64,000 nt of DNA from Candidatus Parcubacteria bacterium (GTDB taxonomy: Bacteria > Patescibacteriota > Minisyncoccia > Phycocordibacterales > UBA918): positions 2,503 through 66,502 of the forward strand of contig JBJOPW010000005.1 in NCBI GenBank assembly GCA_046050355.1. The letters run 5' to 3'. Each line of letters opens with the position of its first letter. The stretch's first letter is position 1. A program made the translations under genes and the position numbers. Below are positions 15,176-32,858 of this stretch, piece by piece. The notes below the pieces were generated by a model. The model saw only the letters and a program-made list of their open reading frames with translations, was not told the origin of the DNA and did no database searches.

Positions 15176-16036
15176 TTATTTTTTCTTAAAGATAGCGATG
15201 AATTCTGGATACAAGTTAAGACCGAGTAGCGCATTGACCTGATACCCAAGCCATCGCCACCAATGCTGCTTTTTGAATTGTTGCTTGTATGGATATACGT
15301 ACTCAAATGACTCTAGCGTAAAACCGGCTTTTTCTAGGGTTTTGATTGAACGGTAATTCCAATAGTTTAAGTGTCCACCAGGTTCTTGGTAGATATAACG
15401 TGGCACTTTATGATTCCACCCGAGCATCAGGGCTACTTTATATTTGAGGTAGGCCCAGCGAGCATTCGGCAACTTGAGGAGTAAGCGTCCATCTGGAGTT
15501 AAGGCATTATGGATATGTGCTAACGCATCCCAAAACTTATGTACATGCTCAAGTACATCAAACATACAAATGAGATTGAATTGCCGACCAGGTTTGTAGG
15601 TCTCAATATTTTCGATATCTCCACCATACCCAAAATACTCTTCGGTCATAGCCTGATACATCTTATCTACTTCAAGAATACGTAGATTTTCGGCTTTGGC
15701 ACCGCGCTTCTCTAACTCATTAAGAAAGAAACCACCACTGGCACCCACATCAAGGGCACTCATAGCTTGACCATACCAAACCATCGCTCGATCAGCATAC
15801 TGCTCGTAGAGCTTCTTTTTGACGTGATTATCTTTAGGATACTTTATTTTTAATTTTGCAAGCGCTGCTGGATCAACCGAAGCATGAGTAATCAGTTGAA
15901 AACTGGCTTGTTGTCGTTCGCGCTCAGGCACGGCGACAAAAAAATAACCACAAGCCTGACATTTATTCATATTGTGTGTCAATACCGACACGCGAGGTGA
16001 CTGGCAAGACAGACAGGTGACTGTTTGATTTTCCAT
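15176..16036 (-). CDS. Class I SAM-dependent methyltransferase with N-terminal Zn-ribbon
   Basis: 286 aa. CxxC...CxxC N-terminus and motif I LDVGASGGFFLNEL, then ICMFDVLEHV. Confidence 0.7.
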   Translation of the reverse strand: MENQTVTCLSCQSPRVSVLTHNMNKCQACGYFFVAVPERERQQASFQLITHASVDPAALAKLKIKYPKDNHVKKKLYEQYADRAMVWYGQAMSALDVGASGGFFLNELEKRGAKAENLRILEVDKMYQAMTEEYFGYGGDIENIETYKPGRQFNLICMFDVLEHVHKFWDALAHIHNALTPDGRLLLKLPNARWAYLKYKVALMLGWNHKVPRYIYQEPGGHLNYWNYRSIKTLEKAGFTLESFEYVYPYKQQFKKQHWWRWLGYQVNALLGLNLYPEFIAIFKKK

Positions 16037-17392: not shown

Positions 17393-18262
17393 ACCGGGAA
17401 GCAACACAAAGAAAAACCATAAGGCATGCTTGAGCGACCAGTCGTACTGCATGGCCTGCCACGCATAGACGATCGCCTCTCGTTTTTTCCGCATTAATAA
17501 TAGTCCGATTGAAACACCATAGGACAATGCCCCAAACCGGTACGGTGCATTTTGTTTGAGATCTACCGCAAAATCAGCAAGGTAGCGTATCAAGTGAGGC
17601 ACCCGTTCAATCGAACGATTTGGCTTAAAAACCTTGCGATCTAACGTCAGCGAGACACCGTCTGATTCTAAATATACATCACCGAGTTCCTCCGATAGAT
17701 GGTACCAACATGTTTGTTTGGCTAGGTACCCATTAACCATAAAATCAATATTGCGGGCTTGGTAGCGCACAGTCGCAAAAAATTCCCGACGCACAACACG
17801 CACTTTTTCGTTATTGGGGACGTACTTAGAGATAATCTGCCCGAGTGTTAGATAACCAGCTGCTCGACTCGGATACGGCACAATCTCACCTCGCAGTAAT
17901 TGCCGACATGGTGCGGACACAACTCCCACGTCACTATGCTCTTGAAATATTTTCATCGCGACAGCTATAGCCTGCGGATAGAGCACATCGTCACTATCCC
18001 ACACCATAATAAAATCGCCCGTCGCGGCATCGAGACCCTTATTACGGGCAACGGTAGCACCTGCATTTTTTTTGAGCACTATGACATGTACTCGCTTGTC
18101 ACTACTGTTAATACCTGCTACTACTCGGTGTGTCTCGTCCGTAGACCCATCGTCAACGATGATTACTTCTAGATCACTCCAGGTTTGCGTCAGAACACTT
18201 TCTACAGAACGCAGCAGTGTTGATGCGCGATTATAGGTAGCAATAACAACACTAACTTTCAT
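17354..18262 (-). CDS. Family 2 glycosyltransferase
   Basis: 302 aa. N-terminal GT-A signature VSVVIATYNRASTLLRSVESVLTQTWSDLEVIIVDDGSTD and DxD motif WDSDD. Confidence 0.85.
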   Translation of the reverse strand: MKVSVVIATYNRASTLLRSVESVLTQTWSDLEVIIVDDGSTDETHRVVAGINSSDKRVHVIVLKKNAGATVARNKGLDAATGDFIMVWDSDDVLYPQAIAVAMKIFQEHSDVGVVSAPCRQLLRGEIVPYPSRAAGYLTLGQIISKYVPNNEKVRVVRREFFATVRYQARNIDFMVNGYLAKQTCWYHLSEELGDVYLESDGVSLTLDRKVFKPNRSIERVPHLIRYLADFAVDLKQNAPYRFGALSYGVSIGLLLMRKKREAIVYAWQAMQYDWSLKHALWFFFVLLPGSGYVLRLYTGAA

Positions 18263-18263
18263 G

Positions 18264-18926
18264 CTATTTTACCCGCAGTAGTACAAATACACTACTGGAG
18301 TGACGCTTCAAACCAAAACCGGTGACCATCGCTGCAATAAACGCCTGCTTCAGTTTCTTTACTAATCGAGTCTCCCCTCGGTATTGAATTGGATATTGGT
18401 AAATGACACGTTCAATTTCGTAAGTTCCCGCCTTTTCATGTCCGGTGAAGAAATCTACGATTTCAAGATACGAGAAATACCACTTATGGCGATCAACTGG
18501 TTTCTCGAGTGGCAGACCATAAAATTTGCCCGTACGATGGGTCTTATAAATCTTGTTCAAACGGTGGTACGAAATTGAGTTAGGAATAGAGATAATCATA
18601 TATTTCTTCGTCACTCGTTGAATATCATGAAATACCTCGTGGAGATTATCGATATGTTCGAGCACCTCGGTACAGATTGAAAGTTCATAACTCTTATCAG
18701 GTAAAAAACGCAGACTCTCTTTTTCAAGGTCAACCATTCTATCCGGCTTCCCACCAATATCAATACCAAAAACTTTGTCACCGTACACTTGTTTTAAGAA
18801 ATTATCATCACACCCGACATCAAGAATCGAGGTGGACTCGCGAATCTCCTTGTCGAAATGTCGTTTAAGAAATTCATACCGGTCAGCTCGGTTTTTGATG
18901 GCAGTAGTATCGTGGACAATGTTCAT
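18264..18926 (-). CDS. Class I SAM-dependent methyltransferase
   Basis: 220 aa. Motif I ILDVGCDDNF and post-I motif ICTEVLEHIDN. Confidence 0.75.
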   Translation of the reverse strand: MNIVHDTTAIKNRADRYEFLKRHFDKEIRESTSILDVGCDDNFLKQVYGDKVFGIDIGGKPDRMVDLEKESLRFLPDKSYELSICTEVLEHIDNLHEVFHDIQRVTKKYMIISIPNSISYHRLNKIYKTHRTGKFYGLPLEKPVDRHKWYFSYLEIVDFFTGHEKAGTYEIERVIYQYPIQYRGETRLVKKLKQAFIAAMVTGFGLKRHSSSVFVLLRVK

Positions 18927-18936
18927 AGGAATAAAA

Positions 18937-19752
18937 TTATTTGTTGCGCTTCACAATAATATAGGCCGTGGCCAGAAAAGGCAAAAACCAATCAACTTTA
19001 AAACTCACAAAGAGCGACAAACGATACAACGTTGGTAAACGCTGGCGAATCGTCCCAATACCTAAAATTCGTTCAGGTAAAGTTATCCAGCACCAATGTG
19101 TAAGAAAGCTAGCCAATCCCCCCACCCGATAATACAGAGTCTCCTCATTGGCCTTGCCAAACAACTGCTTGAGGCGACGTTTATTATACTGTCGGAATCC
19201 ATGCCAAAAATACAAAAACAGGGTTGGAAACATCGGCACCACATGGATTTGTACACCTCCGCGTGTAACCAGTTGGTGCGCTACCGCTACGGCCGCCCTA
19301 TCATCAACGACATGCTCAAGTACTGTCATACTAATAACAAGATCGTATTTTTTGTCAGTGATCATGGTCGTCACATCACCTACAATCAACGTCGAATTGA
19401 AAGCCGGATGCGCAGCGTTGTACGCTGCCTCCTGCACCATATCAATACCCGTATAAGAACCACTGTATCCGTGTGAGGCTAGCACATCACGCACATACCC
19501 AGTGCCACAACCAATATCGAATACCTCGATTGTCTTCTGCGGGAGAGCCTGTACTAAAACCCGAGAGAATACCCGATCTAGGAGCTGTCTCGTCGGTGAT
19601 TCAGTATTGACCTCAGCCAACGTGAAGCGTGGTGCGACATGGGTACTTTTAAGTGACGTCGTATAGCCCCAAATACCGCGAGGGATATTTAATGCTAGAT
19701 ACTGCAATTTTTGGGTAAAGGTGAGACGAACATCACCACAAATTTCCTTCAT
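18937..19752 (-). CDS. Class I SAM-dependent methyltransferase with C-terminal hydrophobic tail
   Basis: 271 aa. Motif I VFDIGCGTGYV, then ISMTVLEHVVD. Confidence 0.7.
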   Translation of the reverse strand: MKEICGDVRLTFTQKLQYLALNIPRGIWGYTTSLKSTHVAPRFTLAEVNTESPTRQLLDRVFSRVLVQALPQKTIEVFDIGCGTGYVRDVLASHGYSGSYTGIDMVQEAAYNAAHPAFNSTLIVGDVTTMITDKKYDLVISMTVLEHVVDDRAAVAVAHQLVTRGGVQIHVVPMFPTLFLYFWHGFRQYNKRRLKQLFGKANEETLYYRVGGLASFLTHWCWITLPERILGIGTIRQRLPTLYRLSLFVSFKVDWFLPFLATAYIIVKRNK

Positions 19753-19753
19753 A

Positions 19754-20905
19754 TCATTTTCTCGCTATTAGTTCTTGAAACAAATCTTCGTACTCTTTAA
19801 CAATCCGTGTAATATCAAATTGGGCGGCCGTTGCCTTGGCATGAGTGGATACATCTTCCCATGCATCATCTGACAATCCAAAAAACCACTCAATTGTAGC
19901 ACACACCGATTCTGGCGTACGTTCGATGAGTCTCCCCTGTTGCCCGTCAACCACGATCTCATCAATTCCTGACACTAACGTCGAAGCAACCGGCACCCCA
20001 AAGGCAAAGGCTTCTATCGCTACGTTTGGAAACCCTTCGATATCAGAGGTAAGGAAAAATACCTTAGCCGTCGCAAAGAAGGTGTACACATCATTACGAT
20101 AACCCGTCAGAATCACACGATCCTCAAGACCGAGAGCTGACACATACGCCCGCAGATTCGCCTCTTCACTTCCAGCACTGACGATACATAAGACCACATC
20201 TGCGGTGGGATAAGCTTTACAGTAGAGCGCAAAACCATCAATAAGGAGACGGTGATTTTTGTGCTTTTTGAGACGAGCGACATTAAGGATAATCTTTGTC
20301 TCAGGTCGCCATCCGAATTCCGCTCGCAGTGCCGCTACTTTTGCCTCAGCATCGGTCGCCAAAAAGTCCTCCACCCGCTTGGTATCAATACCATTGTAGA
20401 TTACCGTGAACCACGACCGCGGAATCAGTGATTGTCGTGACGAAAAATCCGCCACTGTTTTGGATACGGCGACAATGCGGCTCGAAAAATAGGCGCCGAT
20501 ATGGTCACGGATTTTGTGGCGGAGACTCTTGTCTTCGTAGGTATTATGCTCACGCGCAATCACCTTGTACCCAACAAAGGGCCGTAGGTAGCGTACAAGC
20601 GTGTTGGCCGTCACCATACTTGATACCACAACCGCTGGTCGCAAACGACGCAGGAGTTGATAGAGACTCCAGATTGTCTTTATATCAAATCCGCCACGCC
20701 ATGATAACTCATGGACAGTGACGTACGACGGTAGTTGTTCATAGAGTGATTCCCTACCCGCATAGGTACAGAGTGTCACCACATGCACCATGAACTTGGT
20801 CGTATCAATCACTTTCATCTGCGCCAGAAATTGCCGTTCAATACCACCCGAGGCCACGAGACTCGGAAGTACATACACAATGACGCTACGGGTATCGGTG
20901 GTCAT
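19754..20905 (-). CDS. Family 4 (GT-B) glycosyltransferase
   Basis: 383 aa. GT4 C-terminal motif region (FFLTSDIEGFPNVAIEAFAFGVPVAST). Confidence 0.85.
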   Translation of the reverse strand: MTTDTRSVIVYVLPSLVASGGIERQFLAQMKVIDTTKFMVHVVTLCTYAGRESLYEQLPSYVTVHELSWRGGFDIKTIWSLYQLLRRLRPAVVVSSMVTANTLVRYLRPFVGYKVIAREHNTYEDKSLRHKIRDHIGAYFSSRIVAVSKTVADFSSRQSLIPRSWFTVIYNGIDTKRVEDFLATDAEAKVAALRAEFGWRPETKIILNVARLKKHKNHRLLIDGFALYCKAYPTADVVLCIVSAGSEEANLRAYVSALGLEDRVILTGYRNDVYTFFATAKVFFLTSDIEGFPNVAIEAFAFGVPVASTLVSGIDEIVVDGQQGRLIERTPESVCATIEWFFGLSDDAWEDVSTHAKATAAQFDITRIVKEYEDLFQELIARK

Positions 20906-20909
20906 ACTA

Positions 20910-21749
20910 CTAAGAAGATCGCTTCAAATACAGGAGCACATCTTGAAATTGTGGCGTGTGATTATACGGCAATGACTTCGTGTTCATTTGGTAAAGGTAT
21001 CCCGTTTCCTCAAAAGCTTTAAGGAATTCACCAAATTTTGATTCGTGGGTACCCATGAGGTGATGGTACTCAATCACGTACTGCTCCACTTTAGTCAGCC
21101 AGCCACTCTGCGTCAGGTCATGAAGGACTTGCCATTCTGCCCCTTCGATATCAATCTTAGCCAAATCAATCTGTGACCAGCCTGCCTGGTGTAGCAGTGT
21201 CGACAATCGCTCGGCTGGTACTTCTACTGCGACCGTCATCCCTTTGCGAGCATAGGTACTCATCTTGAGTGAGCCTTTTTTAGTTGGGTGCACGTAGAGG
21301 GTTAATTCACCTGGCTGGTCACCAATGGCGCCATGAAAGACAGTTACATCGGTGAGTTTATTTCGCTCAATATTTTTGCGCAGGAGTTCGACTGTGGCCG
21401 GATCGGGTTCGATAGCGAGTACCTGTGCCTCTGGATAGAGCCATTTGATAAACAAAGTCGCAATACCAATATTGGCACCAGCATCAACACAGTACGGAGT
21501 AGTACCTAGCTTCACGTTGTATTCCTGACGCAGAAATGTCTCTTCATAGAGAAATCGCAAGGTCGAGAGATCAAAGCCCTCAATCACAAATCCAGCACAG
21601 TAAATCCGACGCTGGCGCGTCAATGGCGAAAACGGTAAAGCGACCAGGATACAGAGATACCACCACAAAATGAGGATTTTTTGCCTCCTTGAAAGCGGTG
21701 CTTTAAAAAGGCTCGAAATAGAAATAAACGCATTAAAAAGAATACTCAT
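20910..21749 (-). CDS. FkbM-family methyltransferase
   Basis: 279 aa. CVDAGANIGIATLFI...LAIEPDP...IDLAKIDIEGAEWQVL is characteristic of Methyltransf_21 (FkbM). Confidence 0.8.
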   Translation of the reverse strand: MSILFNAFISISSLFKAPLSRRQKILILWWYLCILVALPFSPLTRQRRIYCAGFVIEGFDLSTLRFLYEETFLRQEYNVKLGTTPYCVDAGANIGIATLFIKWLYPEAQVLAIEPDPATVELLRKNIERNKLTDVTVFHGAIGDQPGELTLYVHPTKKGSLKMSTYARKGMTVAVEVPAERLSTLLHQAGWSQIDLAKIDIEGAEWQVLHDLTQSGWLTKVEQYVIEYHHLMGTHESKFGEFLKAFEETGYLYQMNTKSLPYNHTPQFQDVLLYLKRSS

Positions 21750-22774
21750 AGGGTGGCAAATAAATCGGTAAAAAAACGATCAGCGCGAAGTTTCGTTGTA
21801 AACGCCTGCCGGGCCTTTTGCTGCATACTCAGGAACTGCTCAGGAGAACATATATCCCAAAAATCACCAACAATTTTGTCTAACTGTGAAAGCTTATCGT
21901 GTGGCACTCGAATCATAAACGAATCATACTCAATCTCGGTGGCCCGTGGCAAGGGTGTGTCAGTATCGACAAATACTGGTATCCGACCAAGGGAGAGCAC
22001 TTCAAAGAATCGTAGCGAAAAATTTCCATCACCACGTACAACAAGCGAGAGGTCAGCCTCGGTAATTGATTCAACAAATTGCTGGCGAATCACGATTGGA
22101 TCTGCTTCCACTGTTTTGACGCTCCCGGAGTAGGATCCGCGCATGATAAAGCGTCCAGTTACGCGTTTGGCTTGATTTACATAATTTATTGCTTGTCGTC
22201 GGTAGTAGAGACCCTGCAGTGATGGCTGTGGTGCGCCCAGAAACCAGATGGCCAGTTTTGAGCACCAAATCTTTACTTGGTACTTGTATTCCTGCTTCCA
22301 ATCATTGAACCGCACCCAGCCAGCGAAGCCAATGGTTGGTACTGTCGCTACCTTCTCACGGTAGTGCACGCCAAACTGCTCACCAATATCCTCAACAAAA
22401 GCCGGCATAATGATTTCGTTTGATCGCAACTGTGACGAATAGGCTGACGAACGGATGATGATGGCATTATCAATTACAATCGGTTCTGCGCTATCCCCAT
22501 AGGCAAACACAAAGAGCTTGGCGCCAATCTGCTTGGCATAGGTCGCTGCTTCAGCTAGATAGGCAGCATCATGTTCAATCGCAAAATAATTATGCGGGAT
22601 CATTACGTATTTGGCTGACTCCCCTTCCTCCACAAAAGTAGCGAGTGCTTTAAATGGTGCTGTTTTGATCTGCTGAAAGAGACCGCCTTCGTACTCCTGT
22701 GTACTCTCCATCAATGTCAGCAGAATAGAATCTTTAATGCCGTCCTTGCGTCTAAAGATGTAAATGGGGACCAT
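21746..22774 (-). CDS. Exostosin-like (GT47-type) putative glycosyltransferase
   Basis: 342 aa. The C-terminal VVRGDGNFSLRFFEVLSLGRIPVFV resembles the exostosin RGD..S.R.FEA..GCIPV motif. Otherwise it has no recognisable family. Confidence 0.45.
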   Translation of the reverse strand: MVPIYIFRRKDGIKDSILLTLMESTQEYEGGLFQQIKTAPFKALATFVEEGESAKYVMIPHNYFAIEHDAAYLAEAATYAKQIGAKLFVFAYGDSAEPIVIDNAIIIRSSAYSSQLRSNEIIMPAFVEDIGEQFGVHYREKVATVPTIGFAGWVRFNDWKQEYKYQVKIWCSKLAIWFLGAPQPSLQGLYYRRQAINYVNQAKRVTGRFIMRGSYSGSVKTVEADPIVIRQQFVESITEADLSLVVRGDGNFSLRFFEVLSLGRIPVFVDTDTPLPRATEIEYDSFMIRVPHDKLSQLDKIVGDFWDICSPEQFLSMQQKARQAFTTKLRADRFFTDLFATL

Positions 22775-22776
22775 GT

Positions 22777-23430
22777 CTATTTTTTTACCGCCACCACCAT
22801 GTAGCCAAGCGGAAATTGTCGTGGGTAGAGCGGTCGATATTTGATCAACACACCATCAAGGACATAGGCTGGAACAAAAAACAGTGGTCGAATGATTTTT
22901 GGCATTGATAAGATGCACATATTGAGGGCGGCAATACAGACGCCACGACTGACTTCTTTGACTTCGGCCTCAAGTCCTAGCTCAACACACATTCGTTCAA
23001 GGGCGTCACGCGTATAGCGGTGGCAGTCTAAGAGTCCATCACTATGCCCCGGGTGATACATGTACAAAAATGGGACAAACATCACAAACTTTCCTTGTGG
23101 CTTTAGGATACGGACGAGTTCACCGAAGTGCCATTTGTAGTTGTAGATATGCTCAAGCACGTTCATCGAGAGTACCGTATCAAAACTCGCCGTCTCGTAC
23201 GGCAACGCATCGGTTTCAAAGTTGGTCGAGTCACCGGTGAGACGATCCATACTCACAAACTCGGCCCCTGGTTCTTTCACCATGAGCGCCTGGTAGTGTG
23301 GACTACTGCCAGCGCCAATATCAATCACCTTCCCCCGTACCGAAATCTTACGAACGGCGTTGTTAAAGAATGATCGTAGCACCGAGCGACCTTTAGTAAT
23401 TTCTTTGAGTAAAAACGTAAAATCTGACAT
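22777..23430 (-). CDS. Class I SAM-dependent methyltransferase
   Basis: 217 aa. Motif I VIDIGAGSSPH, then LSMNVLEHIYN. Confidence 0.75.
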   Translation of the reverse strand: MSDFTFLLKEITKGRSVLRSFFNNAVRKISVRGKVIDIGAGSSPHYQALMVKEPGAEFVSMDRLTGDSTNFETDALPYETASFDTVLSMNVLEHIYNYKWHFGELVRILKPQGKFVMFVPFLYMYHPGHSDGLLDCHRYTRDALERMCVELGLEAEVKEVSRGVCIAALNMCILSMPKIIRPLFFVPAYVLDGVLIKYRPLYPRQFPLGYMVVAVKK

Positions 23431-23543
23431 GGCACTATAGTAGCATAGCTAAGAAAGTAAATGTATGTTGTCAGGAATCCTCACAAACAAGTCAAAAGCT
23501 ATTGCTATACAAGGGTTAAACTACGATCGAGATAAAAAGGTAA

Positions 23544-24182
23544 CTACTTCTTTTTTATCACCACAATGTATCCAAGTGGTAAAGTTTCAACCATCTTGAG
23601 ATAACGCTTTGAAAGAGCCGAAAAGAAACGGTCCAAACCTACGGCAATTTTTTTGCCGATATACCGGAGGGTTTTGGTAGGAATACCAGTAAATATTGAT
23701 TGGTACATGACCGAAAATAGGCCTTGCCCAGTAGCTTCAATAGAAACGAGGTCACAATCATAACGCTCAGCTAGGCGCTTATACACTGATGGGGTGTATC
23801 GCAGATAATCGTCTGGAGAACCGTGGATGTGGTGCATGAACGGTGTAGTAATGACAATGGTACCCCTTTGTTTCGTCACCCGTACCATTTCACTAAATGC
23901 GTTTTCATACAGCCATACATGCTCAAGTACATTCAGACAGACACAGTGATCATAAGAGCTGTCCTCAAACGGAAATGGTTTTTCTATATCAACAATAAAA
24001 TCCGGTTGGCAGCTTTCGTCGAAATTAATGACTGTAAAGGTATGTTCTCCAGAAATGATGTGGTGGTAGGCTGTGTTCTTGCCTCCACCAACATCTAATA
24101 TCTTCCCGTTCATGGTAAGCCGTTCCAGTGCCTTGTATTCTGCAGTACGGATAATTGAGTAATGGGGGGATATTTTATGCAT
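23544..24182 (-). CDS. Class I SAM-dependent methyltransferase
   Basis: 212 aa. Motif I ILDVGGGKNT, then CLNVLEHVW. Confidence 0.75.
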   Translation of the reverse strand: MHKISPHYSIIRTAEYKALERLTMNGKILDVGGGKNTAYHHIISGEHTFTVINFDESCQPDFIVDIEKPFPFEDSSYDHCVCLNVLEHVWLYENAFSEMVRVTKQRGTIVITTPFMHHIHGSPDDYLRYTPSVYKRLAERYDCDLVSIEATGQGLFSVMYQSIFTGIPTKTLRYIGKKIAVGLDRFFSALSKRYLKMVETLPLGYIVVIKKK

Positions 24183-25005
24183 AGATGGCTCTCATTATAT
24201 ATCGTTTTGGGTGTTTTGTTTGCGAAAATGAGACAGTCGATTCTTTAAATGTATTTTTATAGCTATCGAGTGTAATTCCCTGCAAAAGGTCAAGATGAAT
24301 CTCACCTACATATGTTTGTCCAAATAGCTTCGGGTCAATATCCAAAAGTGCATCCTCTCCTCCTTCAATATCAAATTTTATAATATCAAATCTATCAACT
24401 TGAGATAGTCGGCAGATATCAGCCAATGAGAATGTTTGTATATTCTCTGTATCAATTTGTGAAGTTCTCACTTTTAATGAGTGTCCCATCGGATTCTTAG
24501 TAAGCTGCAATTCCATCTCACCGGCTTCGGTAGCGAGTGCTCCTTGAATAATCTGTACATTGATATCTGCACTAAAATTTTTGCGCAAGTATTCTAGTGT
24601 TTTTGATGACGGCTCAACAACTACAATTTTTGCGTCTGGATAACGCTTGCGCCAGTAGAGTGCAGTATCTCCGATATGCCCCCCCAAATCTAAGATACTG
24701 GTAATGTCTTTACTTGTTTTGATTTCATAATCTTTATCAACAAATGCCTCAGCTAAACCAGCCACATCAAGTACATGCTTTAGTGTGAACAATTTCCGCT
24801 TACCAGAGACAGGTATATTTAGTGTGAAATCACCAAGATTCGATACATAAAACCTTGATATATAGAAATAACAAAGCTGACTGCTAAGTATTAGTGACTT
24901 AAAAATAGAGTGGTCTGATAACTCCCATGCTAGTTTCGGTATTGTGCTGATGATTGTCTTCATGATGTAATTTATCCTTTGTATAGTAGCAATTTTTAAA
25001 GTCAC
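24175..25005 (-). CDS. FkbM-family methyltransferase
   Basis: 276 aa. ILDLGGHIGDTALYW...VVVEPS...IIKFDIEGGEDALL. Confidence 0.8.
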   Translation of the reverse strand: MTLKIATIQRINYIMKTIISTIPKLAWELSDHSIFKSLILSSQLCYFYISRFYVSNLGDFTLNIPVSGKRKLFTLKHVLDVAGLAEAFVDKDYEIKTSKDITSILDLGGHIGDTALYWRKRYPDAKIVVVEPSSKTLEYLRKNFSADINVQIIQGALATEAGEMELQLTKNPMGHSLKVRTSQIDTENIQTFSLADICRLSQVDRFDIIKFDIEGGEDALLDIDPKLFGQTYVGEIHLDLLQGITLDSYKNTFKESTVSFSQTKHPKRYIMRAIYA

Positions 25006-25035
25006 CGGCTAGGTTTTGCGTAGCAGGTGACGTGA

Positions 25036-25081
25036 AATTATAATTAAAACACCCCTATGAAAGGGTGTTTTAATTATAATT
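25036..25081 (-). terminator. Terminator-like 19-bp inverted repeat (AATTATAATTAAAACACCC...GGGTGTTTTAATTATAATT) downstream of the 25090-26751 gene
   Basis: A perfect long stem with a 7-nt loop lies immediately 3' of the stop codon on the minus strand. The flanking sequence is AT-rich. Confidence 0.5.
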
Positions 25082-25089
25082 TTCTTTAT

Positions 25090-26751
25090 CTACGGAAGTA
25101 TATACTCAATCTTCATATACGGATCAGTACTGGTTCCAGAAGCCTCGGATGATCTGAATCTAAAACCCGAATAGGTATACTGGCCGCCAGATATTTGATC
25201 ATTGCCAGCATCATGACCTTCTCGGAAACAAAGTTTTGTGTGTCCAATTTTGTCTATCCAACTTTTTCCGCTTGAATTAAGGCCGAAATTGACGTAGGCA
25301 TTGGCTGATATATTGTCTATATCAATTGTTGCAGCACCTGCGGTTGGATTATTTAAGGAATCTGAACACTGATCTATATCACCTACTACTATACTGCTCG
25401 CTGAACTCTGCATACCTTGATACAAGCCGATGTACCCAAAAGCATCATTGTCGCCGTTGTGAACTACGTTAGTATATACACTCGTTGACGCGTTGAGGAT
25501 TTCTGCATTGTCTGGAAGAGTCGACGTATCAAACACTAGAAATCCACGATAGATTGAAGTCCAAGAAGTTGGACTGCCAATGAATGAGAGCACCTCGACT
25601 TGAGAACCGGTGTAATCAACGTCTCTACCGGTTGTTGCCATCCGCTGACCGGCCCAATTATTTACTCCCCAAGGAGTGCCAAGGTGTCCGTCACCCGACG
25701 AGCCATAAATGACCGTCTGACTAGGTTGAATTCTAAATGTAGCAGTTGAGGTACTCCAATCACCTTCCACACCAAGCTGATCCCAAAACTTGATACGCCA
25801 ATAGTAATCATGACCAAAGCCAAGTGGACTGCCTGAGTAACTTATTTCTGAAGATTTGGTACCAGCTGATGTACTAGCCATAGTGGTTTTACCACTATCC
25901 CACAATAAAGCACCCGAAAAATTGGTAGATGAACTAACTTGAATTTGATAGTTTACAGCTTGATCAGATGGACTGTCACCGTAGTAAGCACTAAATTCGG
26001 GAGTCTTTTCATTTATTGTTGGATTCGTTTGATTTTCAACCTGAAGATTGTAAGCGGTTGGTTTTAAGGAATACTCAATTGTCATGTATGGATCAGTACT
26101 CGTCCCAGCGGCATCAGCTGATTTGAATCTAATACCTGAAAATGTAAATTGGCCCCCAGAGATTTGATCATTACTGACATCATGTCCTTCCCGTAGGCAA
26201 AGTTTTGTATACCCTGTTTTGTCAATCCAATTTTTTCCAGTTGAATTCAAATTGAAAGTGCCGTAAGTATTAACCGAGAAATTGTCTATATCAATGGTTG
26301 CAGCACCTGCGGTTGGGCTGTTTAGAGAATCTGAGCATTGATCAATGTCACCAACATCGATACTGCTCGCAGAGTTTTGCATTCCCTGATACAAGCCCAT
26401 ATATGCATTAGCATCATTGTCATCGTTATGGACAACATTAGTGTATACGCTTGTTGAAGCATTTAAGATTATAGCGTTGTCTGGTATCACGGAAGTATCA
26501 AACACTAGAAATCCTCGATAAATTGAGGTCCAGGATGATGGGCTGCCGATGAATGAGAGTACCTCGACTTGAGAACCGGTATAATCCACGTCTCTACCGG
26601 TTGTTGCCATCCGCTGCCCCACCCAATCATTGACACCCCAAGGAGTGCCGAGGTGACCATCGCCGGTTGAACCGTAGATGGTTATAGTCTCTGCGCTTAC
26701 ATGATTTATGAATAGAAAGAAAAAACAAAATATTATTAATATATTCTTCAT
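25090..26751 (-). CDS. Secreted protein with two tandem approximately 230-aa homologous domains separated by an FN3-like segment
   Basis: 553 aa. Signal peptide MKNILIIFCFFFLFINHVSA. The domains at about aa 20-230 and 335-553 are about 75-80% identical (TIYGSTGDGHLGTPWGVNDW... twice). The underlying DNA repeats are 26062-26694 and 25093-25749. Confidence 0.7.
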   Translation of the reverse strand: MKNILIIFCFFFLFINHVSAETITIYGSTGDGHLGTPWGVNDWVGQRMATTGRDVDYTGSQVEVLSFIGSPSSWTSIYRGFLVFDTSVIPDNAIILNASTSVYTNVVHNDDNDANAYMGLYQGMQNSASSIDVGDIDQCSDSLNSPTAGAATIDIDNFSVNTYGTFNLNSTGKNWIDKTGYTKLCLREGHDVSNDQISGGQFTFSGIRFKSADAAGTSTDPYMTIEYSLKPTAYNLQVENQTNPTINEKTPEFSAYYGDSPSDQAVNYQIQVSSSTNFSGALLWDSGKTTMASTSAGTKSSEISYSGSPLGFGHDYYWRIKFWDQLGVEGDWSTSTATFRIQPSQTVIYGSSGDGHLGTPWGVNNWAGQRMATTGRDVDYTGSQVEVLSFIGSPTSWTSIYRGFLVFDTSTLPDNAEILNASTSVYTNVVHNGDNDAFGYIGLYQGMQSSASSIVVGDIDQCSDSLNNPTAGAATIDIDNISANAYVNFGLNSSGKSWIDKIGHTKLCFREGHDAGNDQISGGQYTYSGFRFRSSEASGTSTDPYMKIEYILP

Positions 26752-26862
26752 AGGGTAAAGATAATCTAATAACTTTTACATCATTATAATAATCCTATTC
26801 TACCCCCCCCTACATAAATTCCACAATGAATACATCTGTATAGTCAATGAAATCAATATGCA

Positions 26863-27915
26863 TTAATAACTCCGCAAAATCTTTGCAATCAAATTTAAAA
26901 GGCTATGCTTCTGTTGCACCCTATCAGCAGCAACACGGGTAAAATTATTCTTGTCAAACAATGGTCGTTTGGTGAGCTCGAGGATATTGGCAACCAGTGC
27001 CTCACTGTCACCAGGGGCAAAAAAGAGTGGCCAATCGGTCTCTGTACCCATGATGTAGCGGTAGGAAGGGTTTGAGGAAACCACCGGCACCCCACAAGCC
27101 ACCGCTTCGACCAATACTTTATCAAGACTGTTAGTAACACCATCGTGAATAAATATATCGGTGCTAGCCAACAGTGCTGGTAATTCTGCCTGTGACGCTG
27201 GTCCATACCAGACTATATGACCAGAAAGACCAGAAGCAATCACCTGTTGTCGGAGCATTGCCTCGTACTGCTTTTCGCTTGGCGTGGTCGCTGCGCCCAC
27301 AATACGAAATGTAAATGGCACCCGTGCCTCTGCGAGCTTCGCGCAGGCGGCGATGAGTGTCTCAATTTGTTTTGACTGTGCAATGCGACCAACGATACAA
27401 AGGCGCAGGACCGGAGATGCAGTGCGTGGCGTATACACAAAGCGGCTCATATCAATTCCCTGCCCGGTCACCACCACTTTTTTTGACGGTAAACGAAAGC
27501 CTTGTGGCGTCGAGGTAAAGACAATATGCGTCAACTGTGTCGCGACCCGGAGTGATAGGGGCACCGCACCATGTGCATACCACAGACCAATACGCTTGCC
27601 CCAGAGTCGCCAAAGGAGGCCCCCAAGGACAACGTACAGCTGGTTCATATGGACAAACACCCCATCGTATTCGTGTCGAAGCGCAAAGATAGAGCGGTAG
27701 AACCGCCAGAGGTATTTGAGGCGGTTCTCACCGGCTTCTTTACCGAGTGAATGCACAGTGACATTCGCGGGCAGCTGGTACTCGCCTACTGACAGCGCGA
27801 TGACATGTACCTGTTCGCAGTTTTTGGCGAACTCCTCTATCCAACGATGAAAGAAACCAAGAATCGGATGATTGGTGTCGACCACCTGCGTGATAATGAG
27901 AAGTCTTTTTTGCAT
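26863..27915 (-). CDS. Family 4 glycosyltransferase
   Basis: 350 aa with a GT4/GT-B architecture. A -10-like TATAAT sits about 40 nt upstream on the minus strand. Confidence 0.85.
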   Translation of the reverse strand: MQKRLLIITQVVDTNHPILGFFHRWIEEFAKNCEQVHVIALSVGEYQLPANVTVHSLGKEAGENRLKYLWRFYRSIFALRHEYDGVFVHMNQLYVVLGGLLWRLWGKRIGLWYAHGAVPLSLRVATQLTHIVFTSTPQGFRLPSKKVVVTGQGIDMSRFVYTPRTASPVLRLCIVGRIAQSKQIETLIAACAKLAEARVPFTFRIVGAATTPSEKQYEAMLRQQVIASGLSGHIVWYGPASQAELPALLASTDIFIHDGVTNSLDKVLVEAVACGVPVVSSNPSYRYIMGTETDWPLFFAPGDSEALVANILELTKRPLFDKNNFTRVAADRVQQKHSLLNLIAKILRSY

Positions 27916-27968
27916 ACATTAATGTTGACAATGAGTGGCTTTTTGCTATTATATAGATATCACAACAA

Positions 27969-28012
27969 AAAGTCCCCTGCCGGGTTCCGTCCCGTCAGGG
28001 TCCTTTTTATTT
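27969..28012 (-). terminator. Intrinsic terminator (GGACCCTGACGGGACGGAACCCGGCAGGGGAC + TTTTTGTTG) overlapping the NYN gene stop
   Basis: An approximately 10-bp GC stem is followed by a T-run on the minus strand. It is also flanked by an A-run, so it is potentially bidirectional. Confidence 0.6.
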
Positions 28013-28498
28013 TCTCCCAATTTTATTTCGTAAACCATTCATAAACATAATATGTTTCTGTGCAAATCTTTTTAAAAGCGCAGAGTAGCGATGTTGATTA
28101 GGTACCAAAACCGCCAGCAATTTTGATTGAGAAAGCAAGTGTTGTACTAAGCAGTAAAAGTCTCCATCACCCGTAACAATGATTGCCTGATCAAAATTGT
28201 TATATTGCAGCATAGTATGGAGTACTAATTCTGCATCACAATTTCCTTTTGTGGTGCCATTTTTGTACTGAAGCGTGGGTTTAAAAATGCAAACAAACCC
28301 AGCTTCTTGTAATCTGGTATAGACAGCATTGTTACCTTCTATATACCCGATGAACAAAAAGGCTTTTTCTATATTGTATTTTTCTTTGAGGTACACTCTG
28401 AACCTCGCCCAGTCAAGAGACCATCCTTGGGCAGTAATGGCCAAATGTACATTCTGTGCATCAATGAACGCATAGTTATTTTTTGTAACTGATTGCAT
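28007..28498 (-). CDS. NYN-domain (LabA/PIN-like) putative ribonuclease
   Basis: 163 aa. NYN motifs FIDAQNV, GNCDAELVL and IIVTGDGDF. Confidence 0.8.
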   Translation of the reverse strand: MQSVTKNNYAFIDAQNVHLAITAQGWSLDWARFRVYLKEKYNIEKAFLFIGYIEGNNAVYTRLQEAGFVCIFKPTLQYKNGTTKGNCDAELVLHTMLQYNNFDQAIIVTGDGDFYCLVQHLLSQSKLLAVLVPNQHRYSALLKRFAQKHIMFMNGLRNKIGRK

Positions 28499-28511
28499 AT
28501 TCTATATACTA

Positions 28512-29642
28512 TCACTTTGAAGTGGTGATAAGTCGCCAAAGCTCGACAATACGATTGGCGTACGCTTCGTCACTGGTAGCGAGGGTGGAGGCCGTAGTGA
28601 GTCCAGCCGTACTGAGGCGCTGCCGTAGGTCAGCATCGGCCACGAGCCTCGTGAGCGCTGCGACGAGGGCGGCTTCGTCTCGTGGCGGCACCACGAGCGC
28701 TTCTTTATCAGGCAGACAGAGTTCTCCGACACATCCTACGTCAGTCGTCACAATGGCGAGTCCCGCCGCCATCGCTTCGCCGAGGACCATCGCATACCCT
28801 TCGTAGTCGGAAGTGAGGGCAAAGATATCAGCGGCTTTCATCACCGAAGCAATATCGGCCTGCCAGGGATAAAATAGTACCGGAGCAGCGCTTGGCCAAA
28901 GTCTTGCCACTTGTGCACGCAGCGAGGTTTCTTCACTCCCCTCACCGACGAGGATCAACTGACTCTGCGGCTGCTGTTGGTGGACTTGCTTAAAAGCATT
29001 AATAAGCAGGGGGAGATTTTTCTCGCGAGAAAAGCGAGCGACCGCGATAATCGTGACCTTATTCTGGTCAGGCCAAAGTGGTCGGGGGCTCGCGGTTTGA
29101 AAGGCCTCAAGCGACGTCACAATCGGCAGTACCGTGAGACGATGACGAGACACACCACGCGTAATGAGCGAACTAGCGATACGCTTTGAGACCACCCGCA
29201 CACCCGTCGCTCGACGGAGAACAAACAGTCCCAGTCCCGCTCGTAATCGATTCCCCCAGGATTCGAGTCGCCAATAATCTCGACTATAAAAATCGCCGTG
29301 TACTTGGACTTCAAGTGGGACACCCGTGAGTAATCGGACCACGAGTCCAATGAGCCCAAACTCAAACGGGCTCTGGACGGTGAGCAGGGTCGGTCCAGCT
29401 TTTTGGCTCTGCTTGACTTGCCGGAGCGTCGCCAAGAATAGACGCCAGAATCGCAGGAGCGGGCTCGTCGCAGAGATCGGTAGTACCGAGAGTCCAGACA
29501 CTTGTACCGGCACCAATGGTTCTTTGACTGGTATCAGAATCGTGAGCTGCTGTATCATTGTGGCATACGAAAGTTGCCGCGCGTACGGGCGCGAGGTGGT
29601 ATCAAGTATCTTTGTATCGTGACCGAGGGAGACAACGTACAT
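28512..29642 (-). CDS. Family 4 glycosyltransferase
   Basis: 376 aa. GT4 C-terminal region (IFALTSDYEGYAMVLGEAMAAGLAIVTTDVG). Confidence 0.85.
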   Translation of the reverse strand: MYVVSLGHDTKILDTTSRPYARQLSYATMIQQLTILIPVKEPLVPVQVSGLSVLPISATSPLLRFWRLFLATLRQVKQSQKAGPTLLTVQSPFEFGLIGLVVRLLTGVPLEVQVHGDFYSRDYWRLESWGNRLRAGLGLFVLRRATGVRVVSKRIASSLITRGVSRHRLTVLPIVTSLEAFQTASPRPLWPDQNKVTIIAVARFSREKNLPLLINAFKQVHQQQPQSQLILVGEGSEETSLRAQVARLWPSAAPVLFYPWQADIASVMKAADIFALTSDYEGYAMVLGEAMAAGLAIVTTDVGCVGELCLPDKEALVVPPRDEAALVAALTRLVADADLRQRLSTAGLTTASTLATSDEAYANRIVELWRLITTSK

Positions 29643-29647
29643 ACTGG

Positions 29648-30775
29648 TTATGCCTTAGTACTAACGACCGCTTCTAAAAGTTGTTTGATGGATGGAATGG
29701 CGTCCGCGGCCCCGAACTGCGCCGCTTTGGCTTTGCCGGCCGTGACGAGTTGTTCCCGTAGTGTACGGTCGGTCAGTATGCGAGTGATGGTCTGATCGAG
29801 TGCCAAGGTATCATCAACCGGCACGAGGAGTCCTTCGACGCCATCCGTGATCAGTTCGGGGTTGCCGCCGACCGGTGTCGTGACGACCGGAGCCCCGAGC
29901 GCCAGCGCTTCAATGAGGTGGTGCGAGAGTCCTTCGTACGCTGTATTAAGCACAAAGACATCGGCGGCAGTAACATAGCGAAAGACATCATGAAATGACA
30001 ATGCCCCCACCATCGTCACCGACGACTCGAGTCCGAGGGTTTTAATTTTTGCTTCAAGCGGTACTCGCTCCGGCCCATCACCACCAATCACGAGTCTGGT
30101 CGCTTCGCCTCGTGCTTTGCGCAGAAGCATCACGTCAAGGAGCGCACTCATACCTTTCCATGGTGTTAGGCGACTAATACTGACGATGGTTTGATCGGCA
30201 AAACCTAATTGAGCTCGCAGGTCATTGCGACTGTCTGTCAGCGGCGCTACCGTGTGTGCACTATAGATGACATGGAGTCGCTCTCCGGACACTCCCCAGG
30301 TTGCGACAATTTCTTTGAGGTACTGACTTGGAACCACAACTGCAGCGGCTCGCTTCACAACCGTTTGTTGGATACCAGCGAGCAAGCGCACCGGTAGTCG
30401 CTCTGCACGCGGATCTTTGGTGTACGCATCAAGAGTCTTTTCTACACCAAAGCGTTGTACCCCCTGCTCCCAAGCGTAGTCACCACCGAGGCGGACCACC
30501 AGTGGTAGCCCGCGGAGAAATGACACTATCGCAGCTGGTACACCGACACTGACGGGATCAAGGGCATAGACCAAAGATACTCCCCGACTAGCTCGCCAGA
30601 GCCGCCAGGTATAAGCGAGGTGCCGAAAGACTTTTGGGACAGTCCTGACCTCTCGGTACGGCACCACCGTGACCGCCATTCCTTCCGCTGGTAGTCTTGT
30701 GGCGATCATCTCCGCATAGCGAGCCGGCCCACCAATATCAGGAGGATATAAGCCCGCAGCCAAAAGTACCTTCAT
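29648..30775 (-). CDS. Family 4 glycosyltransferase
   Basis: 375 aa. GT4 motifs (VFVLNTAYEGLSHHLIEALALGAPVVTTPVGG). Confidence 0.85.
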   Translation of the reverse strand: MKVLLAAGLYPPDIGGPARYAEMIATRLPAEGMAVTVVPYREVRTVPKVFRHLAYTWRLWRASRGVSLVYALDPVSVGVPAAIVSFLRGLPLVVRLGGDYAWEQGVQRFGVEKTLDAYTKDPRAERLPVRLLAGIQQTVVKRAAAVVVPSQYLKEIVATWGVSGERLHVIYSAHTVAPLTDSRNDLRAQLGFADQTIVSISRLTPWKGMSALLDVMLLRKARGEATRLVIGGDGPERVPLEAKIKTLGLESSVTMVGALSFHDVFRYVTAADVFVLNTAYEGLSHHLIEALALGAPVVTTPVGGNPELITDGVEGLLVPVDDTLALDQTITRILTDRTLREQLVTAGKAKAAQFGAADAIPSIKQLLEAVVSTKA

Positions 30776-30790
30776 AATAATCTGAGTATA

Positions 30791-32032
30791 CTAGTCAGCC
30801 CACAGAGGCGCAAACACCTCATCATGCATGCGTTTCGTGATTAGATTCCAGTCATAATCACGCACTGCCATCGCTTTGGCGGTCGCGACGACGTTAGCGA
30901 CGAACTCCGGGTTCGCCATAATCTCGCGCACAACAGTAGCAATATCCTCAGGACTATCTTTACGCACCACAAAGCCAGTTGTTTCTTTATCTGGATTGAG
31001 ATGGCGATCAAACAGAAAATCGGCAATCCCACCCTCCCTCGTCGCGATAACCGGTAGCTCAGCGGCCATGGCCTCCACAAATGAGTTCCCCATCCCCTCA
31101 CTCCGTGACGGACGGATAAAGATATCGCAGGCTTTGAGGTAACTTGGCATCACGTCATGCCCAATCTGGCCGCGGAGCAAGACCCGGTCGCTAAGCTTCA
31201 ATTCGGCAATAAGCGCTTTGAGTTTCTCCTCGTCTGGCCCAAGCCCGAACACCACAAACTTCACGTTTTTCGGCAGGCTCGGTAGTGCCTTAATGACATC
31301 ATCCACGGCGTTTTTGTGCACGAGTCGTGAGGTAGTCACCAGCGCCACGTCACCCGTAACAAGACCAAGTTCCGCACGTATCACCGACCGCTTCTCCGGT
31401 GAGAGTGGTACCATAAACTTCTTCGTATCGACGGCATTTGGGATCACCACTGACTTACCTGTAAAACCCATCCTGGTCGCCCAGGCCTGGAGAAATGTGG
31501 AAATTGATTGAATGACATCAGCTCGGGAGAAAGCTTCCGGGAAGCGCTTACCAAACACCCGCATTTTTTGTTCAATGTACTCTGGCGGATCGCCTTCTTG
31601 GAGCGTCAGTACATACGGTACATGAGGGAACCGTTTTTTGAACATACCGGCCGGCACGCCACAGCTATGGGCCATCATCGCCCAAATGGCATCAAAGTGA
31701 TACTGCTTATGAAGCCGCTGCGCGGCGTAGTAAGCCGAGTACTGGTAGATAATTTTATTGAGATGGAGCGGGAACTTCCGCAAATCACCCATAGTAGGAT
31801 TCTTCTTCACGAGCCCAATACGGTGCACCACCACCTTCCCAATCATCTCCGTTTTTGGCAAGGTACTATCGTAGCGGTTACAAAGCACATGAAACTCATA
31901 CTCCTCATCCGGCAGTCTATCGGTGATTTCTTTGATGGCGACCTCCGCTCCGCCAATATGTTTGGGATAATACCCCAGACTAAAGATGAGTATGCGCTTC
32001 ATGTTGATCAACAATAGTTTTAATATAATCAC
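30791..32032 (-). CDS. Family 4 glycosyltransferase (likely start at internal Met near 32002)
   Basis: 413 aa. KRILIFSLGYYPKHIGGAEV, and the C-terminal IRPSRSEGMGNSFVEAMAAELPVIATREGG. Confidence 0.85.
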   Translation of the reverse strand: MIILKLLLINMKRILIFSLGYYPKHIGGAEVAIKEITDRLPDEEYEFHVLCNRYDSTLPKTEMIGKVVVHRIGLVKKNPTMGDLRKFPLHLNKIIYQYSAYYAAQRLHKQYHFDAIWAMMAHSCGVPAGMFKKRFPHVPYVLTLQEGDPPEYIEQKMRVFGKRFPEAFSRADVIQSISTFLQAWATRMGFTGKSVVIPNAVDTKKFMVPLSPEKRSVIRAELGLVTGDVALVTTSRLVHKNAVDDVIKALPSLPKNVKFVVFGLGPDEEKLKALIAELKLSDRVLLRGQIGHDVMPSYLKACDIFIRPSRSEGMGNSFVEAMAAELPVIATREGGIADFLFDRHLNPDKETTGFVVRKDSPEDIATVVREIMANPEFVANVVATAKAMAVRDYDWNLITKRMHDEVFAPLWAD

Positions 32033-32858
32033 TGAGCAGATGGGTAGCCTGCCATCCCAACTCTAAACGACTGCGTCGAGTATCAGCTTCTGAATACATG
32101 CGATTGCCCGGTCTTTCTTCTAGCCATTCTATCGGTGCACCAAACAGCTGTGCCACCGCTTCAATCGAGTAGGATAGTTCGTGACCGAGACCATACTCGT
32201 CACCCTCGCCGTGCTCGCCCACTCGTACCAACCCTTCAATGATATCAAAAACATGGGTAAAGTTGCGTTTTTGGGTACCTGGTCGCCTGACTGGCAGTGA
32301 CAAGCCGTGAATATACCGGTCTTTAAAAATACCAATGACGGTACCTGAATTCGCATCCGAGCGCTCTCGAGGACCATACACATTATAGAAATAAGTGATG
32401 GCGTAGGAAATACCAAACCACTCACCATACCGTCGGACCAAATCAGTGTTTGAGGCTTTCGTCCACGCATACGGACTCTGGTCACGACCCATACCACCAT
32501 CAGCAAATTTCGTTGATGAACCAGCGTAAATAAGTTTTGGGTTTTTTTGACGCACGAACTCAAGGACCGCTGCGGTTCCTTGTTGATTAAAATCAAGTAC
32601 GGTAGCCACGTCAGCAAAACTCTGTTCTACCCGGGCATATTCACCGAGATGGAAGACCATATCGGGTGCCTCTGGTATATGTTTCGCAATATCTTTTGTG
32701 TGACCTGTTCGGTATGTCACACCAGCCACATGATTACTCACTGAACCGGTAAAATAGTTATCGAGAGAAATTACCTGGTGACCTTCCTGTACCAAACGTT
32801 CACACAGATGTGAACCAACAAAGCCTGCCCCGCCAGTAACCACAATGAGCTTTGACAT
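31980..32858 (-). CDS. NAD-dependent epimerase/dehydratase (UDP-sugar 4-epimerase/decarboxylase-like SDR)
   Basis: 292 aa. Rossmann motif VVTGGAGFVGSHLCERL. Catalytic YxxxK within YAWTKASNTDLVRRY. Confidence 0.85.
   Translation of the reverse strand: MSKLIVVTGGAGFVGSHLCERLVQEGHQVISLDNYFTGSVSNHVAGVTYRTGHTKDIAKHIPEAPDMVFHLGEYARVEQSFADVATVLDFNQQGTAAVLEFVRQKNPKLIYAGSSTKFADGGMGRDQSPYAWTKASNTDLVRRYGEWFGISYAITYFYNVYGPRERSDANSGTVIGIFKDRYIHGLSLPVRRPGTQKRNFTHVFDIIEGLVRVGEHGEGDEYGLGHELSYSIEAVAQLFGAPIEWLEERPGNRMYSEADTRRSRLELGWQATHLLSDYIKTIVDQHEAHTHL

Follow-up and report, generated by a model that had tools for sequence, protein, structure and literature searches.

Introduction

SusE and SusF of Bacteroides and RbmA, RbmC and Bap1 of Vibrio cholerae are non-catalytic, tandem glycan-binding proteins of the cell surface or matrix, the latter being encoded between the vps polysaccharide clusters. 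These proteins combine immunoglobulin (Ig)- or FN3-like domains with tandem domains resembling carbohydrate-binding modules (CBMs), are devoid of enzyme activity, are encoded in glycan loci and gain avidity by multivalency. In Patescibacteria, or Candidate Phyla Radiation (CPR), whose members are mostly uncultured and presumed to be episymbionts, envelope and attachment biology is poorly known, and our literature search on S-layers or glycosylation in CPR yielded nothing useful. Here we describe a protein of 553 amino acids (aa) encoded in a stretch of 64,000 nucleotides (nt) from a Candidatus Parcubacteria bacterium (contig JBJOPW010000005.1), which is called the window throughout, and in which two copies of one domain, here termed D, stand on either side of an Ig-like linker. 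We tentatively favour the view that it is a Sec-secreted, non-catalytic, bivalent glycan-binding surface protein. Its likeness to SusE/SusF and to RbmA/RbmC/Bap1 would be a functional analogy, i.e., one of mode of action, and not a family relationship; SusE and SusF, unlike the window protein, are lipoproteins of degradative loci.

By family, the nearest described proteins are those with the DNRLRE domain (NCBIfam NF033679), which Adindla et al. (2004, PMC2447325) originally reported from cell-surface proteins of archaea and bacteria and whose carriers include disaggregatase and S-layer proteins (PMC9971899). The biochemical role of this superfamily is only partly understood. Like D, it is a beta-rich extracellular domain of ~160-200 aa, found singly or repeated several times in proteins that are secreted or displayed on the cell surface, and both have in common the motifs FDxS...A.I.SA.L, LRE and DP.L.V.Y. 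However, D of the window has ~45 extra N-terminal residues beyond the profile, scores below its curated cutoff, and belongs to a subfamily which is mostly patescibacterial and has a Cys119-Cys165 pair of its own, specific to it. The CBM96 founder, TM6-N4 of alginate lyase Dp0100 (7VBO), is likewise a non-catalytic beta-sandwich module that resembles pro-BMP9, and it binds alginate through a Lys/Arg groove (Lys10/22/25/27/31, Arg36, Tyr159) (PMC9971899). With 13% identity to this founder, D is acidic and comes without an enzyme, whereas the founder is appended to a lyase. In Streptococcus suis WapA-CT1, the fragment made of a Sec signal, DNRLRE and LysM binds the cell wall, the roles of DNRLRE and LysM not having been separated (PMC12704120); DNRLRE there belongs to the exported surface-retention part ahead of an Rhs toxin, while the window protein is without LysM, Rhs or toxin. 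The S-layer glycoproteins SgsE and SgtA of Geobacillus (PMC2943079) are secreted and acidic, and are encoded by a monocistronic gene beside a low-GC glycan cluster with Wzy_C(-TPR); the window protein would resemble them in these respects, its gene looking monocistronic. In contrast to them, the window protein is small, has no anchoring or self-assembly domain, and has an ortholog which consists of a single 21-kDa domain.

Architecture of the protein and family of the repeated domain

The gene encodes, in this order, a signal peptide, D, an Ig-like linker and a second D, which forms the very end of the protein (Table 1). With its n-, h- and c-regions and a V-S-A site, the N-terminal sequence (MKNILIIFCFFFLFINHVSA|ET) looks like a Sec signal peptide, and this leader is the sole hydrophobic segment of the protein. 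It is kept in the ortholog of a sister genome, described below, and in relatives D likewise begins right behind a similar leader. The leader Cys has no preceding lipobox, which ruled out a lipoprotein. The linker matched Pfam PF25788 (Ig_Rha78A_N) with E 2.1e-13 (50.9 bits against a cutoff of 27.4; profile positions 2-96 of 105), and the same Ig domain stands directly behind D in many relatives; it is through this linker alone that existing pipelines annotate the protein. An earlier note on this DNA had read the open reading frame (ORF) as a secreted 553-aa protein with an FN3-like linker, and both descriptions are fair. The identical protein is present on three contigs of independent assemblies, 7.6 kb of surrounding DNA being identical in the two others.

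For D itself the same note had found no obvious family, and here our result differs, as D belongs, as a divergent branch, to the DNRLRE/CBM96-like beta-sandwich superfamily, which is known and very large. The NCBIfam profile DNRLRE_dom matched the whole protein with 30.9 bits (E 2.6e-7; cutoff 34) in one stretch per copy, each spanning nearly the full profile (positions 21-163 of 164) and the best of them covering aa 390-548. A single copy scored 25.6 bits, again below the cutoff, and the N-terminal copy had E 1.1e-5. When 26 D copies taken from database matches were aligned (alignment A1), the profile matched all except one of them, with a best E of 2.9e-12. Since 25 of these 26 relatives match, the homology of the window copies to DNRLRE is supported transitively. 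Pfam CBM96 (PF24517) gave weak matches in three of the 26 copies (best E 4.7e-4) and none in the window copies at E <= 0.1, and we therefore did not file the window domain under CBM96 proper. Weak matches of nine of the 26 to TGFb_propeptide are explained by the resemblance of the fold to the pro-BMP9 prodomain.

The AlphaFold2 (AF2) model of D built from A1 was mostly beta and had high confidence (pLDDT 94.4, pTM 0.91). In the Foldseek search against PDB the best solved match was 8wab, the chondroitin-sulfate-binding CBM of a chondroitinase (E 1.7e-6, TM 0.67-0.71 on target), aligned over 213-214 columns though at only 10-11% identity and a root-mean-square deviation of about 5 A. The pro-BMP9 prodomain 4ycg (E 1.7e-5), the alginate-binding CBM96 founder 7vbo (E 4.7e-4, TM 0.51 on query and 0.58 on target) and the CBM15 structure 1gny were also matched. 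The pairing of 7VBO with the BMP9 prodomain has been reported both for CBM96 and for the DNRLRE domain of a polyhydroxybutyrate (PHB) hydrolase (PMC9971899, PMC12278694). Predicted viral structures gave stronger matches, led by two uncharacterised proteins with TM 0.87 at 20-25% identity (BFVD A0A1B1INI7 and A0A5Q2WAR1 are among the viral proteins with the domain) and followed by a 'CBM96 domain-containing protein' of a Brevibacillus phage (E 6.4e-8), a pectate lyase of a Bacillus phage and several tail or tail-fiber proteins. When the D profile was searched against PDB sequences, a chance-level match alone was obtained (7qdv, E 0.36). Neither the Pfam and NCBIfam scans nor the searches of PDB sequences and of folds revealed a catalytic domain. 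The structure prediction and Foldseek search which the earlier note had recommended thus returned a confident beta-sandwich and no common catalytic fold of carbohydrate-active enzymes. Its suggestion of a lectin is supported by the DNRLRE/CBM96-like homology and by the model, whose nearest neighbours are non-catalytic carbohydrate-binding modules and phage tail or CBM96-annotated proteins.

Residues D11, W23, R59, F64, D65, T66, S67, D115, N149, R167, D171, D200 and P201 are nearly invariant in 222 D copies. It could be argued that the near-invariant Asp, Arg, His and Asn residues form a catalytic or metal site acting on the glycan of the locus, since polar residues are unusually conserved for a family at 30-40% identity, and stand-alone single-D proteins (P0096, P0105, P0169) imply that D has an autonomous function. 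Exopolysaccharide operons also often encode a processing hydrolase or lyase. We nevertheless consider a cryptic enzyme very improbable, because the significant structural neighbours are all non-catalytic modules or prodomains, no catalytic family was matched, and separate effector domains accompany D in multidomain relatives. Conserved acidic clusters in beta-sandwich CBMs are, moreover, commonly structural Ca2+ sites, and those of D may be the same.

In the glycan-binding reading that we favour, two acidic DNRLRE/CBM96-like beta-sandwich modules would be held apart by the Ig-like spacer, each of them binding polysaccharide via a conserved polar, possibly Ca2+-assisted site, and the second module would add avidity or cross-linking. 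The copies are acidic (net charge -11 to -14 and pI 4.2-4.45 per copy, with a family range of pI 4.05-4.96), which argues against a basic groove of the alginate type, and the autonomous single-D proteins somewhat weaken a pure anchor model. As the acidic D differs from the Lys/Arg groove of the CBM96 founder, ligand specificity is not transferable between the two; specificity for alginate or chondroitin by analogy was rejected on account of the acidity of D.

Divergence and recombination of the two copies

The two copies (aa 25-229 and 348-552) align gap-free over 205 residues with 82.4% identity, and the C-terminal copy matched the local hidden Markov model with E 8e-82. At the DNA level a repeat search of the window recovered them as family D1, with 78% identity over 300 nt, and local alignment extended the match to 610 nt (Table 1). 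The repeat coordinates and the 75-80% identity given in the earlier note were right within a few bases or percent. Its two homologous domains of ~230 aa stand as homologous tandem copies, their length being in fact about 205-212 aa. Inter-copy differences at codon positions 1, 2 and 3 number 21, 22 and 91, the synonymous divergence (dS) between the copies is ~1.4, and the ratio of nonsynonymous to synonymous divergence (dN/dS) is 0.07; these three values together show that the repeat is not due to chance. They further point to an old duplication with strong purifying selection on both copies, and dN/dS is similarly 0.06 between the window protein and its ortholog in the sister genome. A recent duplication or an assembly artefact was ruled out by the inter-copy dS of 1.4 and the three identical independent assemblies. 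Within the 64-kb window, no paralog of D was found.

The sister genome (L009) is a Candidatus Paceibacteria metagenome-assembled genome which is syntenic with the window at 78-84% DNA identity. Its ortholog (7941-8633) has 230 aa and consists of a signal peptide and one D. The front of this D, ~157 residues, is nearer to the N-terminal copy of the window protein (85.6% nt identity versus 79.2% to the C-terminal copy), while its rear is nearer to the C-terminal copy (87.5% versus 73.6%). On the two sides of the best breakpoint, which lies near domain residue 157, informative sites split 59/5 versus 29/25 (Fisher p 1.7e-6), and none of 2,000 permutations reached the maximum chi-square of this mosaic (p < 0.0005). 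The 5' flank of the L009 gene runs into the N-terminal copy and the 3' flank into the C-terminal copy. Having the front of one copy and the rear of the other, the L009 gene bears the mark of a single unequal crossover between the intragenic repeats. Judged from the sequences, the simpler direction would be that the L009 lineage, descending from a D-Ig-D ancestor, lost the rear of the N-terminal copy, the Ig domain and the front of the C-terminal copy, a deletion which fits the divergence between the N- and C-terminal copies (dS 1.4) exceeding the orthologous divergences. The reverse direction, an insertion from a D-Ig donor, is possible as well. No close D-Ig donor was found in the databases, in which the best Ig match had 57% and the best non-orthologous D 46% identity, and a protein scan for population variants returned nothing closer than 42%.

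Distribution and modular behaviour of the family

The A1 profile was searched exhaustively against 1.84 billion cluster representatives and matched 15,277 of them at E <= 1e-3 and 2,813 at E <= 1e-30. Relatives carry one to four D copies, with at least two in 71 of the 170 domain-bearing proteins examined (~42%). The copies within one protein are mutual nearest relatives in the window protein (about 80% identity), in P0008 (58%) and in P0066 (51%), which indicates that duplication recurred independently. Layouts in which D is followed by one Ig, by two Ig domains, or by Ig and a second D recur, and contiguous D-Ig-D cassettes lie within the giant proteins P0125, P0133, L043 and L044. As fusion partners we noticed RHS with the toxin Ntox44 (P0005), RHS (P0033), a GH32-like region (P0066) and a borderline C39-like peptidase (P0040, P0043); the D, Ig and RHS of P0005 and P0033 parallel S. 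suis WapA. This pattern of frequent multiple copies and fusions, as read from the sequences, is the behaviour of a targeting or binding module.

The nearest non-orthologous D is 44-46% identical to D of the window, and the named homologs are Patescibacteria throughout. A genome scan made with a closer alignment (A2) found the subfamily, at >=34% identity, only in Paceibacteria, Kaiserbacteria, Nomurabacteria, Minisyncoccia, Parcubacteria and a bin labelled Saccharibacteria, with weaker partial matches in other phyla. Distant D copies sit in unrelated gene contexts. In two such distant loci from different samples, L007 (6273-6887, 10351-11639) and L008 (8458-9072, 9631-10832), D stands beside a class-I methyltransferase of ~204 aa and two genes of unknown kind (~200 aa and ~160 aa), which make up a second conserved neighbourhood. 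Viral contigs encode relatives of D at 25-34% identity, and in the 42.7-kb viral contig L033 the domain ORF (5995-6822) lies directly upstream of a tail-fiber gene (6824-8086).

These contexts bring up the explanation that the modules bind a foreign glycan on the bacterial host of a presumed episymbiont, making the protein an adhesin towards a host or partner cell whose location in a glycan locus is incidental. The D domain and the D-Ig cassette do occur in giant surface proteins and in RHS/Ntox44 polymorphic toxins that must contact other cells, D occurs in phage tail-associated proteins that recognise host surfaces, and the divergence between lineages is fast, as the 44-46% identity of the nearest non-ortholog illustrates. 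Yet we regard this as unlikely. The protein lacks an anchor to the producer cell, and by being secreted freely it would be unable to bridge two cells; selection is strongly purifying, and nothing points to a diversifying kind; and the position of the gene, conserved across several Patescibacteria lineages, argues for a tie to the cell's own glycan.

Surface-glycan locus and expression signals

In the window the gene order is Obg, SecA, MurB, Wzy_C-TPR, sulfotransferase, GT4, a truncated UDP-glucose dehydrogenase, a methyltransferase and Wzx, the last on the plus strand, followed by GT2, more methyltransferases, GT4, a GT47-like gene, the target gene, four GT4 genes, an NYN gene and an epimerase (Table 1). 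According to Pfam scans, FkbM-type and class-I methyltransferases flank the target on one side and GT4 genes on the other, all on the same strand, which agrees with the placement between methyltransferases and glycosyltransferases originally noted. The place of D between Wzx and Wzy_C-TPR-MurB-SecA is conserved in at least seven other Patescibacteria loci. The backbone Wzx ... D ... Wzy_C-TPR-MurB-SecA-Obg is common to the window and L003-L006, L013 and L014, in which a protein with the same N-terminal signal peptide and D lies between Wzx and Wzy_C-TPR-MurB-SecA. The glycan genes around D in relatives are variable and include those for 3'-phosphoadenosine-5'-phosphosulfate (PAPS) synthesis, NeuB/CMP-sugar, methyltransferase, GT4 and GT47. 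The locus position is conserved across lineages and the C-terminal part of the D protein is not: some of these proteins end with D (230-aa forms), and others continue with a helical tail of ~100 aa, with a peptidase-like module, a beta-sandwich and a tail, or, as in the window, with Ig and a second D.

Because the gene holds this conserved place in a glycan locus, the likeliest ligand would be the cell's own surface glycan made by the same Wzx/Wzy-type locus, and the protein may coat, cross-link or organise the glycan layer. Other payloads, such as the peptidase-like module or the helical tail of relatives, would be tethered to this layer by the same N-terminal module. The architecture, homology, fold, purifying selection on both copies, locus position and lack of a catalytic domain are direct results of the analysis, from which carbohydrate binding, the ligand, the mechanism and retention on the cell are inferred. 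In P0038-P0041, P0043 and P0047 (loci L003, L004 and L006) a module with invariant CGC...GH motifs stands behind D and is followed by a confident beta-sandwich and a helical tail. This payload module scored 23.8 bits against Pfam Peptidase_C39_2 (cutoff 24), and its profile matched the C39-like peptidase 3erv in PDB at E 0.084. Its AF2 model, built from 6 sequences, had a pLDDT of 64 (<50 in the region of the catalytic Cys) and found no significant match in Foldseek. The payload is thus at most a candidate C39-like peptidase.

The target gene looks like a transcription unit of its own, with a putatively constrained promoter and 5' untranslated region. Upstream of its start, ~74 nt are identical to L009 (7860-7940) except for a tract of eight versus nine G residues, while flanking coding DNA is merely 78-84% identical. 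The region holds a perfect TATAAT (26783-26788), with the G8 tract (26803-26810) 14 nt upstream of it; G8 is found in the window and in both other assemblies. A promoter-consensus scan gave no enrichment over shuffles, so that the constraint is deduced from conservation and not from the scan. We speculate that slipped-strand change of the G tract could cause phase variation; no metagenome contigs were found when we fished with the conserved promoter flanks. Downstream, a terminator-like hairpin begins 8 nt past the stop codon, and its core is kept in L009.

These signals also bear on the other idea of the earlier note, a glycosylated S-layer-like substrate, by which the protein would be an acceptor glycoprotein, S-layer-like or other, which is exported and O-glycosylated by Wzy_C-TPR acting as an O-oligosaccharyltransferase (O-OTase), with D as acceptor or scaffold. 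The window and the loci L003-L006, L013 and L014 all encode, directly upstream of MurB and SecA, a protein of 730-745 aa with Wzy_C and a C-terminal TPR, and the 739-aa protein of the window shares the architecture of the O-OTases WsfB and PglL (PMC2943079). S-layer structural genes are monocistronic and can adjoin low-GC slg clusters (PMC2943079). The target gene is framed by a conserved promoter-like region and a terminator hairpin of its own, and at 42% its GC content is below the 47% of the window; its product has an acidic pI, and Ser and Thr make up 22% of the residues. DNRLRE is, in addition, known from cell-surface proteins, including disaggregatase and S-layer proteins, as cited above. 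The D gene lies directly upstream of Wzy_C-TPR in L004, L005 and L013. A gene for D next to that for Wzy_C-TPR is an arrangement like that of pilA-tfpO. On the other hand, neither Pfam nor NCBIfam showed an SLH, a CWB2 or another domain for anchoring or self-assembly, and the single-domain 230-aa ortholog and the freely swapped C-terminal parts are unlike S-layer proteins, which usually have 40-200 kDa. Furthermore, searches of Wzy_C-TPR against PDB sequences and NCBIfam did not tell ligase, polymerase and O-OTase apart, and a distance of 13 kb separates the two genes in the window. Hence we judge the acceptor role improbable, though it is compatible with glycan binding. A bolder form of it, to which we give distinctly less credence, would make the D protein a dedicated acceptor or display protein of CPR O-glycosylation, with Wzy_C-TPR as the O-OTase. 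A surface-layer glycoprotein family would then be identifiable in Patescibacteria for the first time, and repeat recombination (D-Ig-D to D and back), possibly along with G8/G9 slippage, would vary the dose or valency of the protein. The binding of the cell's own glycan therefore stays the interpretation we lean towards.

Some further features of the window and of related loci may be recorded. Bifunctional ATP-sulfurylase/APS (adenosine-5'-phosphosulfate)-kinase genes occupy equivalent loci in L005 (6281-7918) and L006 (6357-8018), and, taken with the sulfotransferase of the window, they suggest that these Patescibacteria commonly carry sulfate on their surface glycans. The dehydrogenase ORF looks truncated at both ends and may be a pseudogene or a split gene. 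The NYN gene, which the otherwise syntenic L009 locus lacks, may have been inserted recently. Immediately outside the glycan locus there are a fusion of YkuD L,D-transpeptidase and Peptidase_S11 D-Ala-D-Ala carboxypeptidase (35312-36862, minus strand) and a TrwB/VirD4-like coupling-protein ATPase (33395-35230, minus strand). A complete 16S rRNA gene is present (46939-48397, minus strand) with no 23S or 5S gene in the 64-kb window, i.e., an unlinked rRNA arrangement, and ~1.6 kb downstream of it are tRNA-Leu(CAG) (45218-45300, minus strand) and then tRNA-Ile(GAT) (44590-44664, minus strand).

Table 1. Positions in the window of the target gene, its parts and signals, and selected genes of the surface-glycan locus
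Feature	Position	Strand	Basis or remark
Whole gene, 553 aa, signal peptide - D - Ig - D	25090..26751	-	ORF listing, ATG start
Signal peptide, aa 1-20, predicted cleavage after VSA	26692..26751	-	Read from sequence
N-terminal DNRLRE/CBM96-like beta-sandwich domain, aa 21-232, pI 4.2	26056..26691	-	NCBIfam DNRLRE_dom, AF2, Foldseek
Ig/FN3-like linker, aa 234-335, Ig_Rha78A_N	25747..26052	-	Pfam PF25788
C-terminal DNRLRE/CBM96-like domain, aa 343-553, pI 4.45	25093..25725	-	DNRLRE_dom stretch, identity to N-terminal copy
DNA repeat copy 1	26071..26680	-	Local alignment, 610 nt, 78.9% identical to copy 2; repeat search
DNA repeat copy 2	25102..25711	-	Local alignment to copy 1; repeat search
Terminator-like hairpin, 20-bp perfect stem, GC core CACCC/GGGTG, T-rich 3' side	25035..25082	-	dG about -26 kcal/mol
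Conserved upstream region	26752..26830	-	Near-identity to L009
Surface-glycan locus around target	9605..32858	-	Pfam scans
Wzy_C-TPR, 739 aa	9605-11824	-	Pfam scan
Sulfotransferase	11983-12810	-	Adjoins Wzy_C-TPR
UDP-glucose/nucleotide-sugar dehydrogenase, 287 aa	14273-15136	-	Profile positions ~70-279 of 413
Wzx flippase	16025-17392	+	Pfam scan
NYN-domain (RNase-like) gene, GC 36%	28007-28498	-	Between GT4 genes

Implications

The result overturns nothing, as the protein is a divergent member of an already named, very large domain superfamily, and the D-Ig-D cassette is also seen in other proteins. The advance is a modest one and comprises a family and a fold for a protein which had been annotated through its Ig linker alone, the recognition of a DNRLRE/CBM96-like module as a conserved component of a variable surface-glycan locus in several Patescibacteria lineages, and a clean example of a change in domain number by recombination between intragenic repeats. 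If it is true that the module binds the cell's own glycan, it would provide a handle to purify or label these cells and to define their surface polysaccharide.

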